Shown here: piece after piece, positions 15,722 through 22,789 of the stretch
Numbering within the stretch: position 1 is the first letter of the stretch
Layout: every line of letters starts with the position of its first letter
Assembly: GCA_038153405.1 (NCBI GenBank)
Contig: JAYOYH010000058.1
Span: 1 to 27,311, forward strand
Length of the DNA stretch: 27,311 nucleotides
Origin: Gemmatimonadota bacterium
GTDB taxonomy: Bacteria > Latescibacterota > UBA2968 > UBA8231
Direction of reading: 5' to 3'
Notes under the pieces: model-generated
The model's database searches: none
What the model saw: the letters and a program-made list of their open reading frames with translations, nothing else
What the model was told of the DNA's origin: nothing
Program-made: the position numbers and the translations under genes

Positions 15722-17188
15722 ATGGCCAAGAAAGAACGTTCGCGGCAAAAGAATAAGAGCCCAAAGGTCGCGCGCGCTGCAGGCCGTGTTCCGGCAGATA
15801 TAATCGAGCTGGGGTCTCGGCGAGAATTGTTCGTCGATGACTATCTGATCGAGCGAATGGACGGCATCGAACTGCGCCTGCACGAGCCCGTGCCGCGCAA
15901 CGTAGCGATTGATCACGACGCGCCGTGGGAGGGCAATACCAGCGGCTACCACGCGATTTTTAAGGACGGCCGGCTGTTTCGCGCCTATTACCGCGGATCG
16001 CACTACGAGGCACACGGTGCCTACAAGCCGGTTGTGTGCTATGCCGAAAGCCGCGACGGCATCGAGTGGTACCGGCCAGAGCTGGGCTTGGTCAGCTTCA
16101 AAGGGTCGACGCGCAACAATATCGTTTGGGACGGCCCCGGCGCGCTCAACTTCACGCCGTTCCGCGACCGCAACCCAGCCTGTCGGGCGGGAGAGGAATA
16201 CAAGGCGCTGGGCAGTCCGCACGCCAGCAGCCGTGAAGAGCAGGCCCTGCTGGCCTTTAAGTCTTCCGACGGCATTCACTGGAGTCTGCTGTCGAACAAA
16301 CCGGTGATGGACCACACCACGGGCATCAACCTGTTTGACTCACAGAACGTGGCCTTTTACGATCCGCAGCGCGGCTGCTACGTCGAGTACCACCGCGATT
16401 CGATCTACCCGGACGGAGTGCGCTACCGCCAAATTATGACCTGCACCTCAAAGGACTTTCGTTGCTGGACGGAACAGCAGCTGCTCGACTACGGCGATGC
16501 GCCGCTCGAGCACCTCTATACCAACGCAGTGACGCCCTACTACCGCGCACCGCATATCTACATAGGTTTTCCCAAGCGCTTTGTGCCGGGTCGCCGCCGC
16601 TCCGGTCACCGGCCCCCCGGCGTGTCGGACACCGTGTTTATGACTAGCCGCGACGGGTTGCACTTCAAGCGCTGGGGCGAGGCCTTTGTGCGGCCCGGCC
16701 TGCAGCCGGAGCGCTGGGAGACGCGCAACAATATGACGGCTTGGGGTATGCTTGAGACGGCCAACTACCTGCCAACGGCGCCCAAGGAGCTATCGATCTT
16801 TGTCAGCGAGGGGTACTATGGCAGCGAAAACGTCCGGCTGCGGCGCTTCACGCTGCGCATGGATGGCTTTGTTTCGGCCAAGGCGCCATTGAGAGGAGGT
16901 AGACTGGTCACGCGGCCCTTCACCTTTGAAGGCGGTGCGCTGAGCCTCAATGTCAGCACCTCGGCGGCCGGATCGGTGCGCGTAGAAGTCCAAGAGGGCG
17001 ACGGCCGGACCATTGCGGGATATGCTCTGAGCGACTGCGACGAGATCTACGGCGACGACCTAGAGCGCATGGTCACTTGGAAGGGGCGCGCCGACGTCGA
17101 GCCGCTGGCCGGTCGTCCGGTGCGCTTGTGCTTTGCGCTGAGCGACGCCGACCTATACAGCCTGCAGTTTACGCCGCTACCCCGCTAA
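15722..17188 (+). CDS. Putative glycosidase-like beta-propeller protein (GH32/43/130-like architecture) with C-terminal beta-domain
   Basis: ELFVDDYLI, repeated S-x-D-G-x-x-W boxes (ESRDGIEW, SSDGIHW, TSKDFRCW, TSRDGLHF), FDSQN, LRMDGFVS and ADLYSLQF. AAGGGG SD. No hydrophobic signal peptide. Confidence 0.75.
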   Translation: MAKKERSRQKNKSPKVARAAGRVPADIIELGSRRELFVDDYLIERMDGIELRLHEPVPRNVAIDHDAPWEGNTSGYHAIFKDGRLFRAYYRGSHYEAHGAYKPVVCYAESRDGIEWYRPELGLVSFKGSTRNNIVWDGPGALNFTPFRDRNPACRAGEEYKALGSPHASSREEQALLAFKSSDGIHWSLLSNKPVMDHTTGINLFDSQNVAFYDPQRGCYVEYHRDSIYPDGVRYRQIMTCTSKDFRCWTEQQLLDYGDAPLEHLYTNAVTPYYRAPHIYIGFPKRFVPGRRRSGHRPPGVSDTVFMTSRDGLHFKRWGEAFVRPGLQPERWETRNNMTAWGMLETANYLPTAPKELSIFVSEGYYGSENVRLRRFTLRMDGFVSAKAPLRGGRLVTRPFTFEGGALSLNVSTSAAGSVRVEVQEGDGRTIAGYALSDCDEIYGDDLERMVTWKGRADVEPLAGRPVRLCFALSDADLYSLQFTPLPR

Positions 17189-19446
17189 AAAAACGCGTTG
17201 TGCAGCAGGCGCAGGCTGCGCCCGGGCTCGGGAGAGAGGTCTTTAATGCGGTTGAGGTGTTTTCGGTAGACCGCATCGGTGGCATTGTCTAGACTCAGCG
17301 AGAACGCGTGCAGGTGCCCGCGCCAGTAAAGTGTATACTGACCCGATAGATCCCAAACGGCATAGCCATCGGTCGGCGTCTCAAAGGGGCCAATGCGCCG
17401 CTGTGCGGTGGCCCAGCGCAGCGCTCCGGTCCACTCCAACGCTTCGCGCGGCTCGTACGTCAGGCCAACCCGTCCCTGCAGCGGCGGCAGGCGTGGAATG
17501 GCTTCGTCCCCTAAATCGGATAGCGTGCCCTGCACGTAGCCCAGCGTACCAGCCGTTTTCCAACGGGGCCTGATGTGCCAGGCGAAGGACGCCTCGATGC
17601 CGTGCATAAGTGCTTCGAGGCCAACGGTCTGATACAGGAACAGGTCGGCGCGTCGCCAGCTGCGCTGTCCGGTATTTTGGGGGAAGATGTATCCGTCGAT
17701 ATGGTTGCGGAACACGGCCATGCTGAGATGGTCTTTGTCGCGGCGGATCTCGGCAAAGACTTCTACGCCCAGTGCGCGCTCGCTGCCTAGACGGCCGTTG
17801 CCGACTTCGTAGGCGTAAGACGCCAAATGGGGTCCTTCCGAAAAGAGCTCTTCGACGCCTGGGGCGCGAAAGGTGCGCATGAGCGTAGCGCCCACGCTTA
17901 CCTGGCTGTGCGGTTGATACTGAACGGACAATCCGCCGGATGCGCCGGAAAAGCGGCGCGGTTCGATGCGGCCGACCCAGCGCGAGTCACGTTCCTCTTC
18001 CGGCGTAATGCGGCGCGTATCAACGCGCAGTGCGCCTTGTGCTTGCCAGGGTCCGCTTCGCCAATCGCCGTACGAGAAGACGGCGCCGGCATATTCTTGG
18101 GCATCGGGGGTAAAGTTTAGCCCTGCTGCCGCATAGTTGCGATACTCATACCAAATGCCCAGCGCTGCGCGCTGTCGAGCGCCCGAGCGTCCCCAGTGCA
18201 TTTGCGCGCTGCCGTTGTGCGTTAGCACGCCAAACTCCATACCCAGCGCGCGGCCGTCTTCGTATTCTGCGTGCTCGTAGCGGGAAAAGGCGTGGTGTAT
18301 ATCGAGCATTTCGATACCAATGCGATCTACCCCTCGCCACCGACTGCGCAGCTCGGCGTGCTGGCGCTCCATTTCGATGGCAACGCCGTTGGAATGGCCG
18401 CCGTCGGGATTGGGTGGAATGCCGTAGTGTGAGCGATAGAAGCCCAGCGCCCCCCCGGTGTGGCCCCACGCGCGTATAGCGCTCATGCCCAGCGCGGCAT
18501 TACCCGTTTTTATGTGGGTGTTGGACAGTAGCCCGCGCGGCGTCGAAACGTCTCCGGCCGTGCGCCAACTGCCGTCTGCGCGCAGGACGAGCGATCGACC
18601 CAGCGGCTGCACGTGCTCTAGGCCCAGCGACAGGCCGCGGCTGCCGCTTTCGCCCTGCCACGATGCGGCGCTCCCCGCGTGCGCTGGCCGCTCGCTGGGC
18701 ACGTAGCCGCGCCGTACGTTGATGACGCCGCCCAGTGCATTGGAACCGTAGACCATGGTCTCCGGTCCGCGCACGATTTCGATGTGCCGCGTCGTCATCG
18801 GATCGACGGCCACGGCGTGGTCGGATGAGGTTGCCGATAGGTCGCCCGTGCGCTCGCCGTCTTCCAGCACGAGCAATCGGTCGCCGCTCAGTCCGCGCAG
18901 CACCGGCCGAGCGGAGGCTGGTCCCATGGAGCGCTGGGCGATGCCCGGCTCGTAGTCGATGGTTTCGGCGATGGTCTGGCCGAGATGTTGCCGTAGCTTG
19001 CTACCGCTAAAGACGACGTCGGGCTCGCTCAGTGGCACTAGTGAGCGTTCGCGCTGACCGTCGATGCGCACCTCTTCTAGTAGCAGTTCTCGGTGACCTA
19101 TTTGCAGATCGACACGGGTGGTATCACCTGCTGTAATCTCCACGGCAAAGCGCGCGTCGTGGTAGCCGATGCGCAACGTTTGAACCACGCGGCGCCCTGC
19201 AGGTAGGCCAGTAAAGAAAAAGGCACCCTGCTCGTCGACCATCTGGACGCGGTCCGTGCCCTCCACGAGCACGGTGACCCACCCTACGGCTTCTTTGCTC
19301 TCGACATCAATAACGCGCCCGGCCAATGCACCGCTTTGCGCGCTGGCTGCAGCGGTGCACATGGCCCAAAGTACAAAGCCAATATGGCGCAGTGCTCGAG
19401 CGCAGCTGACCAGCGGAAGGCGCCGTGGTTTTCGCAGATGCGGCAT
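17185..19446 (-). CDS. TonB-dependent receptor, ZnuD-like metal-uptake subtype, with N-terminal carboxypeptidase-regulatory-like domain
   Basis: Signal peptide (...AAASAQ), GRVIDVESKE domain, plug motifs RPVLRGLSGDR, SSDHAV and IEIVRGP, FRAPGVEELFSEGPH, terminal Phe. Start is ATG 19446 or TTG 19455. Confidence 0.9.
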   Translation of the reverse strand: MPHLRKPRRLPLVSCARALRHIGFVLWAMCTAAASAQSGALAGRVIDVESKEAVGWVTVLVEGTDRVQMVDEQGAFFFTGLPAGRRVVQTLRIGYHDARFAVEITAGDTTRVDLQIGHRELLLEEVRIDGQRERSLVPLSEPDVVFSGSKLRQHLGQTIAETIDYEPGIAQRSMGPASARPVLRGLSGDRLLVLEDGERTGDLSATSSDHAVAVDPMTTRHIEIVRGPETMVYGSNALGGVINVRRGYVPSERPAHAGSAASWQGESGSRGLSLGLEHVQPLGRSLVLRADGSWRTAGDVSTPRGLLSNTHIKTGNAALGMSAIRAWGHTGGALGFYRSHYGIPPNPDGGHSNGVAIEMERQHAELRSRWRGVDRIGIEMLDIHHAFSRYEHAEYEDGRALGMEFGVLTHNGSAQMHWGRSGARQRAALGIWYEYRNYAAAGLNFTPDAQEYAGAVFSYGDWRSGPWQAQGALRVDTRRITPEEERDSRWVGRIEPRRFSGASGGLSVQYQPHSQVSVGATLMRTFRAPGVEELFSEGPHLASYAYEVGNGRLGSERALGVEVFAEIRRDKDHLSMAVFRNHIDGYIFPQNTGQRSWRRADLFLYQTVGLEALMHGIEASFAWHIRPRWKTAGTLGYVQGTLSDLGDEAIPRLPPLQGRVGLTYEPREALEWTGALRWATAQRRIGPFETPTDGYAVWDLSGQYTLYWRGHLHAFSLSLDNATDAVYRKHLNRIKDLSPEPGRSLRLLHNAFF

Positions 19447-19469
19447 GCTATACAACGCGGAGTACGATG

Positions 19470-19958
19470 CTACTCGTCTTCGTGGTCTTCGCCCGGACCG
19501 CTCTCCGTCACGCGCACGGCAAAGGGCAGCGCAACAAAGTCGGCGTGGCCGTTGTGATTGAGCTTAATGACTATTGTCGTCTCTCCTATGCCTTCTCCGA
19601 CAATGTGGAAGGACCACATTCCATCGTCTTCGTGCCATTCGATTTCGGCGATCGCTTTGTCTGCGACGTCCCAGCCGAGGGAATAGCCATCGTCGGTGGC
19701 GGGCGAAAAGAGCGCGCCCTCTTCGTTCAAAAAGCGAACGCTCAGCAGCGCCGTTTCTTTTTCCAATCCGACTTCTACTTCACCGCTGACGGCCCCCTGT
19801 TCGTAGCGGACCAGTTCCACGCCGCTGTTATACAGCACAAAGCCAAACGCTTCGGCGTGTTCGTCTGCGCGGTCTTCGTTTACGGGATTGTCGTCACTGC
19901 ATGCGGCGACGAAAAAGAGTGCGGTCAGTATATACAGGGTAGATTGTGCTTTAAACAC
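19470..19958 (-). CDS. His/acidic-rich lipoprotein, probable partner of the TonB receptor
   Basis: Lipobox VAA-C20 after a hydrophobic stretch. DEHAEA, HNGHADF and C-terminal EDHEDE. GGAG SD 9 nt before the GTG. Confidence 0.85.
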   Translation of the reverse strand: MFKAQSTLYILTALFFVAACSDDNPVNEDRADEHAEAFGFVLYNSGVELVRYEQGAVSGEVEVGLEKETALLSVRFLNEEGALFSPATDDGYSLGWDVADKAIAEIEWHEDDGMWSFHIVGEGIGETTIVIKLNHNGHADFVALPFAVRVTESGPGEDHEDE

Positions 19959-20097
19959 GTTTCATTTCTCCGTTGAGTGGTGCGCTCTAGCCTGTGTAAT
20001 AGCGCACGGCGCGAACGCACGGGGGTCTGTACAGGCGCGGTTCGATCCCGTCGCCGTATATCAGACTGCTGTGTGGTATAGAAAAACGGTGCCGCGT

Positions 20098-20179
20098 GCT
20101 ATCCCACCTGCGGAATAGCTATGCGGACAGGTGTGTCGGCCATGCTGACGATAGACCCCGGTGGGGGTGCTGCGTCAGC
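20098..20179 (-). promoter_or_regulatory. Structured intercistronic leader with alternative hairpins
   Basis: A GCTGACG/CGTCAGC stem (20144-20179) with an inner ACCCC/GGGGT overlaps the upstream stop codon. Two mutually exclusive hairpins lie at 20098-20119 and 20105-20133. Confidence 0.5.
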
Positions 20180-20490
20180 TATGCAAAACGTGGAGGTGCT
20201 CGATTGGAAAGGGAAAAGCCAGAGAATAGCAGAAATTGGGGTACGGACCATTGGGAAGAGACGAACGCACGGCGCACCGCAGGGGAAAGCGCAATGGCCG
20301 CTGTAATCGACAGCTGCACCAAGCTGCTTTCCAGCATGTGAAACGGGCAGCTTTCGGGCTCGACCGAGAGGTCGTGAAAGAGCTGATGTCCGAGCGGCAG
20401 GCCCAGGAAAAGGCTCAGCAATAGGGTGCCGAGCAGCAGGTTGGCAAGCCGCATGCGGCGCGTTGGGCGATTGGGTGTGCACAGATCCAT
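20179..20490 (-). CDS. DUF2946/CruR/CutF-like leader protein with C-terminal RAPP arrest motif
   Basis: MDLCTPNRPTRRMR, then a transmembrane segment (LANLLLGTLLLSLFLGLPLG), then HQLFH...CPFH...NRAPPRFA*. Directly upstream of the lipoprotein and TonB receptor. Alternative start at ATG 20454. Confidence 0.75.
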   Translation of the reverse strand: MDLCTPNRPTRRMRLANLLLGTLLLSLFLGLPLGHQLFHDLSVEPESCPFHMLESSLVQLSITAAIALSPAVRRAFVSSQWSVPQFLLFSGFSLSNRAPPRFA

Positions 20491-20619
20491 GCGGTTGAAT
20501 ATAATGCAGTAAAGGAAAAGCGATAGGCTCACTTTTTTTGTTCGTCACGCGCAGATACTATCGGTCAAAGACGGCAGCTCGACGCAGAAGACCAAAGTGG
20601 CTAATAGAGTAAATACAGA

Positions 20620-21432
20620 TCAGTCTGAGGGGGCATACTCGCCGCGCGCGTTCCAACCGGGATAGTGCGCCTCGAGGGCCGACAGCATTTCGCGCGTGTA
20701 GTAGGGATGGCCGGCTGGTGGAAAGCGAAATAGCTCGCGGTCGCGCGCGGTGAGTTCGGCGATAAAGCGGCGGAAGTGCTCATCGCGCGCGACGTGCGTG
20801 TAGTGGGCGACGCCCTCCCAGTAGTGGTCGGCGCGTCCGTAGGCAAACTTCCACACGTAGCGCTGGCCGTCCTCGCGCCGGTAGGGACTGGCCGCGTGCC
20901 AGGTGTAGTTGTGAAAGATAGCGACCGAGCCGGCCGGTGCGACAAAGGCCTCGGCACGGCGTTCATTGCACTCGTGCTGGTTGGCGACAAAGAGCGTGGG
21001 CGCTTGGTCCTCGGCGACGTCTTCCAGATAGAACCAGAAGTTGAGCTGGGCGTGGCGCCGCTCGGAAGTGGGCGGCAGCAGTGAGTTGTTGCCGTTGTCG
21101 AAGTGGAATTCCATGCCGCCGCGCCCCGGGTAGGTGCACATCAGCAGGCCGGGCCGGTAGTGGATGGATTGGGTGCCTAAAAAGCGCTGGGCGAAGGCGA
21201 TGGACTCGCGGTGGACGATGGCGCTGTTTAGGCAGGGTTCCGGATAGGGGAAGAAATAGTTGGTTAGGCGGTCTTTGGGCGGGTCGGTGCGCACATCGTC
21301 CCACGGCTTGAGCAGTCGGCGCGCGGCCACGGCCATTTCGGCCACCTGTTCGGGCGGCAGCAGGCGCTCTACGATGGCGTAGCCGCGCTGGCAGACCTGC
21401 TCAAAAACGGCGTCGTTGAGTTTTTTTTCCAT
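20620..21432 (-). CDS. Phytanoyl-CoA dioxygenase (PhyH) family Fe(II)/2-oxoglutarate dioxygenase
   Basis: GYAIVERLLP, HFD (HxD), YLEDV..DQAPT, PAGSV, distal WHAAS and Arg. Start moved to ATG at 21432 (MEKKLND). Confidence 0.9.
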   Translation of the reverse strand: MEKKLNDAVFEQVCQRGYAIVERLLPPEQVAEMAVAARRLLKPWDDVRTDPPKDRLTNYFFPYPEPCLNSAIVHRESIAFAQRFLGTQSIHYRPGLLMCTYPGRGGMEFHFDNGNNSLLPPTSERRHAQLNFWFYLEDVAEDQAPTLFVANQHECNERRAEAFVAPAGSVAIFHNYTWHAASPYRREDGQRYVWKFAYGRADHYWEGVAHYTHVARDEHFRRFIAELTARDRELFRFPPAGHPYYTREMLSALEAHYPGWNARGEYAPSD

Positions 21433-21443
21433 AGAGCTAAAAT
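21416..21443 (+). promoter_or_regulatory. Putative sigma70-type promoter for a plus-strand small RNA
   Basis: TTGAGT-N16-TAAAAT, overlapping the PhyH start codon on the opposite strand. Confidence 0.5.
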
Positions 21444-21448
21444 TTCTG

Positions 21449-21567
21449 GAACCCCGCCCATCGGTTAGGCGTTTCACTCTATGCGGGTCGAACCGGTCAC
21501 GACTCGCATCCCTCCCGACGGCGAGAGGCGCTTTTCGCAAGAAGCGCGCCTCTCGTCGTTTTTTTTT
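21449..21567 (+). ncRNA. Candidate small regulatory RNA (~120 nt), family unrecognised
   Basis: Upstream promoter, 10-bp hairpin at 21481-21509, single-stranded CCCTCCC at 21510-21516, and a terminator. The G-T pairs in both stems work only on the plus strand. Confidence 0.55.
21518..21567 (+). terminator. Rho-independent terminator (plus strand)
   Basis: 14-bp stem ACGGCGAGAGGCGC/GCGCCTCTCGTCGT (one G-U) ending in a 9-T run (21559-21567). Confidence 0.85.
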
Positions 21568-21606
21568 ATGCTAGCAGCGCAGCTACAGTCTCATAGGAAG
21601 GCGGTG

Positions 21607-21645
21607 TGACCGGCGATTGACCCGGTGGCAGAATCTCGCCGGTCA
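21607..21645. other. Inverted repeat downstream of the dehydratase stop (possible 3' stabilising or pause hairpin)
   Basis: Perfect 10-bp arms TGACCGGCGA/TCGCCGGTCA with a 19-nt loop. No U-tract on either strand. Confidence 0.6.
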
Positions 21646-21655
21646 ACGCAAAAGC

Positions 21656-22789
21656 CTACTGCCAGAGCGGTTCGCCGTCTTGTAGCATGCTCTGCAAGAA
21701 CGCTTCGTTGAGCTCTACGCCCAGTCCGGGCGCTTCCGTCATTGCGACGTGGCCGTCTTGGATGACGGGCTCGTCCGAGTTGATAACATCGTTCCAGGTC
21801 GGGTCGTTAAAGCGGTGGAATTCTAGGGCCAAGAAGTTGGGCACGCTGGCGCAGACGTGCGCATCGCCGACGGTGCTCAGTGCGCTGGAGTTGTTGTGCG
21901 GCGCAAAGGGAATGTAGTAGGTCTCAGCCATATTGGCGATTTTGCGGCATTCGCTTAGACCGCCGCACTTGGAGATATCGGGCATGATGATATCGACAGC
22001 CTGCTTTTCGATAATCTCGCGGAAGCCGTAGCGCAGGTAGGCGTTTTCGCCAGCGCAGATCGGGGTTTTGGTAGAGTGGGTGATGTGGGCCATAGCCTGG
22101 ATGTTTTCCGGCGGCACCGGCTCTTCCAGCCACATTAGGTTTAGGTCCTCTAGCGCGTGGGCCACTTTCATGCCGGCGGTGGCGTCGTAGCGGCCGTGCA
22201 GATCGATGGCCAGGTCCATATGCGGCCCGACGGCCTCGCGAATTTCGTGCGCCTGGTCGACCATGATTTCCAATTCGCCGGGCGTGACCGACCAGTTCCA
22301 GGCGTCGGCCTTGTGCGGGTTGCCGGCATCGTCGAGGTCGAACTTAATGGCGGTAAAGCCCTTTGAACGGGCCTCTTCAGCGCGCTCTTGGCAGTTGGTC
22401 ATGGCGCTGTCTACGTAGAGGCGCACGCGGTCGCGAAACTTGCCGCCCAGCAGCCTGTAGATCGGTACGCCCTGCGCTTTGCCGGCTAGGTCCCATAGGG
22501 CAATTTCGAGTCCGGTCAGTGCCGAGATGCCCAATCCGGCCATGCCGCCGCGGAAGATATAGCTGCGGCGGATGCCCTCGAAGCAGGCGTCGACATCGCG
22601 CGGGTCCTTGCCGATGAGCTGCTGGGCCATGGTCTGCGTAGAGCCGCGCCAGCCGCCGTCGACGTGACTGGCCTCGCCCGTGCCGTAAACCCCTTGGTCA
22701 GTGTAGATGCGCACGTAGTGGTAGAGGTAGCGCGGGCGGCCGTCGATGATCATCGGCACTTCAGCGGTTTTGACTTCGGTGATTTTCAT
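21656..22789 (-). CDS. Mandelate racemase/muconate lactonizing enzyme family acid-sugar dehydratase (KxD subtype)
   Basis: MKITEVK start with GAGG SD. GxGE, EIALWDLAGK, AIKFDLD, DLHGR, WLEEP, AGEN and APHN motifs. Confidence 0.92.
   Translation of the reverse strand: MKITEVKTAEVPMIIDGRPRYLYHYVRIYTDQGVYGTGEASHVDGGWRGSTQTMAQQLIGKDPRDVDACFEGIRRSYIFRGGMAGLGISALTGLEIALWDLAGKAQGVPIYRLLGGKFRDRVRLYVDSAMTNCQERAEEARSKGFTAIKFDLDDAGNPHKADAWNWSVTPGELEIMVDQAHEIREAVGPHMDLAIDLHGRYDATAGMKVAHALEDLNLMWLEEPVPPENIQAMAHITHSTKTPICAGENAYLRYGFREIIEKQAVDIIMPDISKCGGLSECRKIANMAETYYIPFAPHNNSSALSTVGDAHVCASVPNFLALEFHRFNDPTWNDVINSDEPVIQDGHVAMTEAPGLGVELNEAFLQSMLQDGEPLWQ

Follow-up and report, generated by a model that had tools for sequence, protein, structure and literature searches.

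A candidate small RNA family behind a predicted sigmaE-type promoter in Ca. Latescibacterota, with outer-membrane barrel genes among its predicted targets

The window analyzed here, a 27,311-nt stretch of DNA from a Ca. Latescibacterota genome (the source genome, G000; 93% complete), contains an intergenic region bounded by two minus-strand genes: a divergent PhyH-family dioxygenase gene (20620..21432; PF05721) and a convergent gene of the mandelate racemase/muconate lactonizing enzyme family (MR_MLE; 21656..22789; PF13378/PF02746). The first-pass annotation proposed that the plus strand between them encodes an unannotated small RNA (sRNA) of ~120 nt with its own promoter and terminator, acting as a trans-acting translational regulator and/or as a cis-antisense RNA to the PhyH leader. 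This raises the question of whether the plus strand carries a genuine RNA gene and, if so, what would transcribe it and which mRNAs it would control.

Structure, conservation and genomic context of the RNA element

Covariance models (R1 and R2), homologues, covariation and fold z-scores delimit a predicted small RNA of ~87 nt at positions 21481..21567 of the plus strand. Its first part is a 10-bp stem-loop with one G-U pair (stem 1; 21481..21509, plus strand), the loop of which (21491-21499; NNCCGGUCN) contains the word CCGGUC at 21493-21498. It is followed by a CCCUCCC linker (21510..21516, plus strand), which is unpaired in the fold and is the predicted seed against GGGAGGG ribosome-binding sites (RBSs), and by an intrinsic-terminator-like hairpin with a T9 tail (21517..21567, plus strand), comprising 15 bp, a 1x1 internal loop, 4 bp and a GCAA tetraloop, with T9 at 21559-21567. 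The first-pass annotation had correctly positioned the 10-bp stem with its G-U pair, the unpaired CCCTCCC and the T9 run, as well as two boxes, TTGAGT and TAAAAT, discussed below; it had also recognized the last hairpin, slightly undercounting its length as a 14-bp stem. This hairpin was absent from the output of a simple terminator scan, presumably because of its internal loop.

Folding of the region from 21416 to 21575 gave a z-score of -4.05 on the plus strand, with 0/200 shuffles equally good, versus -1.90 and 11/200 on the minus strand, and the 87-nt core alone (21481-21567) reached -5.48 (0/200). The plus-strand fold was the better of the two in 44 of the 47 aligned homologues. At the gathering threshold, Rfam release 15 returned no match in the window or at five homologue loci, the best similarities being terminator-like and far under threshold (E 0.3-2.7). 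Several other readings of the region were rejected: ARAGORN found no tRNA or tmRNA fragment on the contig, a minus-strand T-arm-like word was unpaired and variable, and a minus-strand small ORF after GGGAGGG has 11 codons, is frameshifted in one relative (G020) and lacks a conserved ATG. Separately, the stretch that separates the RNA from the MR_MLE gene contains an extra inverted repeat (21606-21650); it is single-copy in the source genome and missing in five aligned relatives.

A BLAST-type search found full-length homologues in 5/40 relatives, and the covariance model R1, built from these five sequences and that of the source genome, matched 62/76 genomes of the family at E<=0.5. Model R2 matched 64/76 at E<=0.001. 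The alignment comprised 47 matches (46 chosen loci), from which near-duplicates of genus g14, weak matches and one false positive (L088) were excluded. In this model-fitted alignment, 96.1% of cells were paired and 28/29 base pairs changed on both sides (9/10 in stem 1 and 19/19 in the terminator-like hairpin); 0/500 shuffles scored as high, and slid partners gave 38-44%. In a MAFFT seed alignment, which is not model-fitted, 6/29 pairs were compensatory. The linker is intact in 42/47 homologues, bearing out the proposal of an exposed anti-Shine-Dalgarno (anti-SD) motif, and the loop word CCGGTC is present in 39/47. We are highly confident that the two-hairpin element is a real RNA gene.

Outside the family, R1 gave one weak match among 87 genomes and R2 one in 40; these matches were terminator-like or partial, lacked the full anatomy and were rejected. 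A GTDB pattern scan yielded 49 loci, of which 35 showed the structure by eye (25 titled Latescibacterota or Latescibacteria, 6 Gemmatimonad-type and 1 Planctomycetota); the other 14 lacked it, had no R2 score at E<0.3 and were discarded. None of the 49 viral pattern matches scored. Among the genomes searched, the RNA is confined to one family of Ca. Latescibacterota. It was not detectable in G068 (94% complete, 2 contigs), in which the ancestral site described below is empty and a pattern match was rejected as a copy because it falls within a coding gene. Two shortened copies, one in G003 and one in G007, retain CCCUCCC and the terminator together with the promoter boxes. G003 has two shortened copies in all (L159, at G003:C90:11661-11722, and L097), both with CCCUCCC, the terminator and a remodelled first hairpin. 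At another locus (L085), two near-identical variant copies lie 1.9 kb apart (G061:C33:50394-50500 and 52255-52361), with a longer loop, a CCCUUCC linker and a -35 box in one copy only.

The surroundings of the RNA gene differ among homologues. In 35/47 it is flanked, in antisense orientation, by a TPR-PPIase gene on one side and by thiT or thrC on the other; 4/47 copies follow a Gfo/Idh/MocA gene that shares their strand, and 3/47 are elsewhere. The MR_MLE gene adjoins the RNA in 5/47, all from genus g1, and also adjoins the diverged copies of G003 and G007. In genus g1 (G000, G002, G003 and G007) the ancestral site, between the PPIase gene and thiT, is empty; the RNA gene therefore appears to have moved together with its promoter. 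With at least three genomic contexts and neighbours on both the same and the opposite strand, the RNA gene is an independent unit; this agrees with an RNA that stands alone and acts in trans, but not with one tied in cis to PhyH. In one relative (G005, L021), the PhyH sequence beside the RNA is a 5' remnant only, near a gene labelled by eye as PAS-type histidine-kinase-like.

In most of the loci listed, the terminator-like hairpin lies within ~40 nt of the end of the convergent gene and could end that transcript. A terminator only, possibly that of the convergent gene, would nevertheless leave stem 1, the conserved loop and linker, and the fixed-distance promoter unexplained. Covariation, the promoter and the contexts argue against a gene remnant, and an element that is present once in the source genome, one to three times in relatives and that was relocated as a unit is unlike REP/MITE-like dispersed repeats. 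We consider it very improbable that the element is a terminator only, a remnant or a repeat.

In eight RNA-library runs with small word shares, contigs of relatives spanned the element in seven (all but X6). All seven contigs run upstream through the promoter at a depth of 2.7-6.7, a pattern expected of DNA or of read-through from the opposite strand.

A predicted ECF-type promoter and its candidate sigma factor

Upstream of stem 1, a six-way alignment revealed two invariant boxes flanking a variable spacer, GGAAC-N17-CGTT. The -35 box of this predicted ECF (sigmaE-type) promoter, GGAACC (21448..21453, plus strand), is conserved outside the covariance model, and the -10 box, CGTT (21470..21473, plus strand), lies 17 nt past GGAAC and 7 nt ahead of stem 1. 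What had been read as a weak first stem (CGCC/GGCG) is really the variable spacer between these nearly invariant boxes. A perfect match to all 10 positions of GGAACC-N16/17-CGTY was present in 36/47 homologues versus 5/5000 control windows, and in 30/41 homologues outside the set where the motif was first spotted, and a score of 9-10/10 was reached by 42/47 homologues versus 17/5000 windows; promoter and homologue counts of this kind overstate significance, as the relatives are not independent. In all 42 homologues with a 9-10/10 promoter, CGTY stands 6 or 7 nt from the first paired base. The rows of mapped GGAAC..CGTT promoters of S. meliloti used for comparison, in which start-site marks are not visible, end ~5-9 nt past CGTT (PMC6180224, Table 1). 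This gap and this spacing would place the RNA 5' end at 21479-21482 and give a length of ~87 nt, in place of the ~120 nt first proposed, the former first stem being part of the promoter upstream. Assignment of the promoter to the ECF/sigmaE type is, in our judgement, quite probable.

The first-pass annotation had assigned a sigma70 promoter, TTGAGT-N16-TAAAAT, to the RNA. These boxes (21416..21443, plus strand; TTGAGT at 21416-21421 and TAAAAT at 21438-21443) do exist in the source genome and overlap the PhyH start, as would suit a sigma70-driven, ~120-nt cis-antisense RNA controlling the PhyH leader. Their match to consensus is 9/12, the region holds three such sites versus 1.0 +/- 1.0 in shuffles, and the -35 box falls within PhyH codons; they are retained at the homologous place in 1/47 homologues. 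The predicted RNA starts at a distance of 49 nt from the PhyH start codon, outside that CDS; PhyH is its neighbour in only 2/47 homologues, and cis-antisense control was therefore rejected. We judge the boxes incidental and give a sigma70-driven antisense RNA scarcely any credence. The earlier proposal of a plus-strand sRNA that has a promoter and a terminator of its own was supported, with a different promoter from the one that it had named.

In the source genome alone, the motif is little enriched genome-wide: GGAAC-N17-CGTT occurs 22 times versus 15-33 times at other spacers, and intergenic PWM matches number 13 and 14 at spacers 16 and 17 versus 9-13 elsewhere. Intergenic occurrences precede bamA, degP, porX, a group-2-like sigma gene and the genes for a SIMPL protein and a YbgF-like TPR protein. 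Among orthologues, G(G/A)AAC-N16/17-(C/A/G)GTC was found upstream of 18/18 degP genes examined (18 of 20 matches; two at contig ends were dropped), with a PWM score of at least 10 in 15 of them, and a score of at least 12 was found upstream of 10/24 bamA genes (24 of 25 matches; one partial was dropped). By comparison, 4/126 controls scored at least 12 and 6/126 at least 10, and the corresponding figures for a sample of own genes were 12/587 and 26/587. The motif common to the RNA, degP and bamA points to a sigmaE-like regulon. The top PWM match, at C6:110269, sits within a terminator-like hairpin and was rejected as a promoter. Several bamA leaders (L210-L233) also carry, past the ECF promoter and ahead of the start codon, a conserved hairpin resembling GAGCCGC...GCGGCTC, possibly an attenuator or a processing site.

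An rpoE-like ECF gene of the source genome (C32:24813-25421) is conserved in 22/24 family genomes. In six sister-family genomes, the rpoE-like gene has GGAAC-N16/17-(G/T)GTYYAA upstream (6/6), and in G025 the next ORF, which has no Pfam match, looks anti-sigma-like by eye and precedes a trypsin-like protease gene. The RpoE-like protein of G040 finds the orthologue of C32:24813-25421 as its best match in 5/5 genomes of family f1, at 51-55% versus 30-36% for other ECFs. We infer that an RpoE-like factor of the C32 type probably reads the RNA promoter. Family f1 shows no autoregulation of its rpoE orthologue (best PWM score 10.5), so that this assignment rests on orthology; autoregulation of the ECF gene of the source genome was rejected as not conserved.

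A sigma54-type motif, GGYAY-N5-TTGC, lies within 250 nt upstream of 22/22 f1 rpoE orthologues (L181-L202; L179), a count that leaves out a second match in G023, versus 0/6 in sister families and 0/28 on the reverse strand. No anti-sigma-like gene lies directly downstream of rpoE in the four f1 loci inspected, and an RpoN-box protein is encoded in the source genome at C32:10744-12165. These data suggest a rewired sigma54-to-sigmaE cascade in family f1. The sigma genes of the source genome (L052-L065) comprise 14 Sigma70_r2 matches, namely, about nine ~280-aa group-2-like paralogues, one FliA-like and four ECF; the group-2-like genes C31:22626-23456 and C6:11223-12119 have GGAAC-type boxes upstream.

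Predicted targets of the linker and the barrel family

We propose that envelope stress would lead the RpoE-like ECF sigma factor to transcribe the ~87-nt RNA, the single-stranded CCCUCCC of which would pair in trans with GGGAGGG RBSs and repress, rather than activate, translation. Notable among its targets would be an expanded family of barrels, ~880 aa in length and predicted to lie in the outer membrane. The RNA would form a repressor arm: the sigma factor would raise BamA and DegP, and the RNA would lower barrel synthesis.

Our own simple gene calls gave 3985 genes in the source genome, of which 3932 leaders were examined. GGGAGGG stands just upstream of 32/3932 genes, three of which belong to one ~880-aa secreted protein family. 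This family, which has no Pfam match, numbers 22 full paralogues and one partial in the source genome and 14-38 copies in each near-complete relative searched (L269, L270 and L271; C10:30345-33098 is an example); its members have Asp-rich loops, and an N-terminal query found no match in five non-family genomes. Structure prediction from a 93-sequence alignment gave long antiparallel strands at a pLDDT of 79.9 (29 for the single-sequence fold). All Foldseek matches listed were outer-membrane barrels or complexes with one (among them MtrB, SlpA-type, FimD, OmpG and LptD), with low TM-scores of at most 0.28 by query length. The family is predicted from these models to consist of outer-membrane beta-barrels.

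In relatives, GGGAGGG was found at the RBS of 10/87 barrel genes versus 1/375 other genes (p 3.4e-7), a comparison to be read in light of the barrel-target idea having formed after 3/32 seed matches were seen and of the related genomes not being independent. Without six loci that share a clade with the discovery genes, the count was still 7/81 (p 3e-5); among non-barrel genes encoding a hydrophobic N-terminus, it was 0/102. The sites fell on about seven separate branches of the barrel tree (a quick tree with a midpoint root). GGGAGGG was the top-enriched 7-mer in an unbiased scan of barrel-gene RBSs, and AGGAGG was not enriched (5/87 barrel versus 17/375 other genes; p 0.58). The GGGAGGG duplex with the linker is predicted at -14.4 kcal/mol versus -11.7 kcal/mol with the ribosome, and GGGAGGG suits the linker better because the 16S tail ends CACCUCCUUU. 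The stand-alone contexts and the enrichment of the linker complement at RBSs support the first-pass idea of a trans-acting translational regulator as probable. For the full model, with barrel mRNAs as the main targets, we lean modestly in favour.

The same ECF-driven, trans-acting sRNA might instead have other mRNAs as its main targets, probably through the CCGGUC loop together with the linker, and the GGGAGGG of barrel genes would then be an inherited RBS quirk. In the source genome, 29/32 of the listed seed-bearing genes lie outside the barrel family, the 7-mer is found at 4/22 barrel paralogues (by eye), and a ranking by seed energy alone puts the barrels at places 23, 24 and 26 among 3929, behind mostly cytoplasmic or inner-membrane genes. 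Sites also persist in two genomes without the RNA: GGGAGGG stands at 7/35 close barrel genes in G068 versus 9/25 in the RNA-bearing G060 (p 0.24), and at 3/5 barrel genes examined, of 36 matches, in G075. Because 28/31 genomes of genus g14 bear the RNA, however, its loss from G068 and G075 may be recent and the sites inherited. Conversely, G015 bears the RNA and yet has only a distant barrel subfamily, with sites at 0/16 genes examined, of 38 matches; among all distant members examined, the count was 0/36.

Conservation of the loop nearly equals that of the linker (39 versus 42 of 47), which would fit other targets, and its complement does not figure among the enriched k-mers of barrel leaders (GACCGG at -5..+20 occurs in 6/87 barrel versus 7/375 other genes). 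No partner that would explain the CCGGUC loop was found. A two-site clamp, pairing the SD and AUGACCGG, was seen in one barrel subfamily with no clear enrichment and was set aside. The sole two-site candidate tested, a lipoprotein gene (C14:100013-102082), was also rejected, its site being missing in 22/22 orthologues. Duplex ranking without accessibility was uninformative as a target finder. The top rank of the exact linker complement in the unbiased scan, at RBSs in which AGGAGG is not enriched, argues for the barrels, and we regard other main targets as possible though unlikely.

An ECF-driven RNA could also have a protein or a second RNA as its main partner, serving as a decoy, a sponge or a palindromic CCGG-loop dimer, with no mRNA repression. 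The loop ACCGGU can self-pair (-9.7 kcal/mol), and the loop variants UUGGUC and CUGGUU keep wobble self-pairing. Hfq (PF17209), moreover, was found neither in the source genome (0/1; 93% complete) nor in five relatives (0/5), with controls positive in 5/14. However, the conserved UC past CCGG is unneeded for a palindrome, CCAGUC variants break it, and the linker complement is enriched at RBSs. We think such a role improbable.

Comparison with known regulatory RNAs

RpoE of E. coli governs the chaperones and proteases of the envelope and, through MicA, RybB and MicL, represses outer-membrane proteins (OMPs) (PMC8103513, in excerpt), and VrrA plays the same role in Vibrio cholerae with Hfq not strictly needed (PMC2628432, in excerpt). 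Like these RNAs, the one described here is a stand-alone sRNA behind a predicted sigmaE-type promoter, and it would repress OMP mRNAs as a repressor arm; its promoter motif is common to degP and bamA, as is expected of the sigmaE-dependent, OMP-repressing class. Unlike them, it has no Rfam match, comes from another phylum and, among the genomes searched, occurs in a Latescibacterota family only. The class acts on porins, whereas the predicted targets here are a lineage-specific barrel family. RybB and MicA carry their seed at the 5' end, and both depend on the Hfq chaperone. In contrast, the predicted seed here is an internal C-rich anti-SD linker, and Hfq was not found in the six genomes searched for it. 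The RNA is likely an Hfq-independent functional analogue of MicA, RybB and VrrA that belongs to a new family.

The sigmaT/EcfG-dependent GsrN of Caulobacter likewise has an AAC/CGTT-type ECF promoter and a C-rich element. In the excerpted text of two papers, this element, a C tract in the 5' loop, pairs with G-rich leaders; GsrN activates katG, and its BLAST homologues are reported from Caulobacteraceae only, usually near ecfG-nepR-phyR (PMC5869019, PMC8103513). Here, by contrast, the linker, not a 5' loop, carries the C tract, the promoter motif marks degP and bamA, and the neighbours are TPR-PPIase, ThiT, ThrC, MR_MLE or Gfo/Idh/MocA genes, never ecfG-nepR-phyR.

The exposed single-stranded UCCC and the predicted blocking of the SD resemble those of the UCCC-motif sRNAs LhrC, RsaE, RNAIII, SprD and FsrA and of 6C. 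As excerpted, LhrC of Listeria is envelope-stress-induced and Hfq-independent and has a CU-rich single strand between two hairpins that is predicted to block the SD (PMC4132741), and the C-rich loops of 6C of Mycobacterium are reported to bind without chaperones (PMC6486639). Those RNAs are, however, Gram-positive and have several redundant C-rich sites, compared with one here, and none shows Rfam similarity to the present RNA. LhrC is driven by a two-component system, whereas a predicted ECF sigma factor would drive the RNA described here. Thus, its wiring is like that of MicA, RybB and VrrA and its seed like that of LhrC and RsaE, and it is a member of none of those families.

A broader evolutionary reading is that the circuit evolved apart from that of Proteobacteria, with a non-autoregulated RpoE, driven from a sigma54-type promoter and lacking an adjacent anti-sigma gene, acting through an Hfq-independent anti-SD RNA. 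The barrels would have adopted the non-canonical GGGAGGG as a shared address, allowing one RNA to throttle many paralogues. We offer this as a tentative and rather unlikely scenario. If the proposed model is true, a design in which sigmaE raises the assembly machinery and an sRNA lowers the barrels arose anew, from unrelated parts and apparently without Hfq. In the literature searched, we found no report of a Latescibacterota small RNA, barrel or sigma factor, and supplements of ncRNA-motif surveys could list the RNA; as far as that literature goes, this would be the first sRNA family to be defined, along with its promoter and regulon, in this Latescibacterota family. It would also provide a testable regulatory handle on a Pfam-less barrel family, and the promoter, the sigma factor, the RNA and the leaders of its targets are all short pieces that could be tested in a laboratory host.

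Two further observations concern other loci of the source genome. Within the window, a row formed by a TonB-dependent receptor gene, a His-rich lipoprotein-like gene and a short His/Cys ORF (20179-20532) spans 17185-20532 and resembles, by eye, a metal-uptake module. At C73:17962 (plus strand), a strong match to the ECF motif is followed by a hairpin with no called gene, which is possibly a second sRNA.
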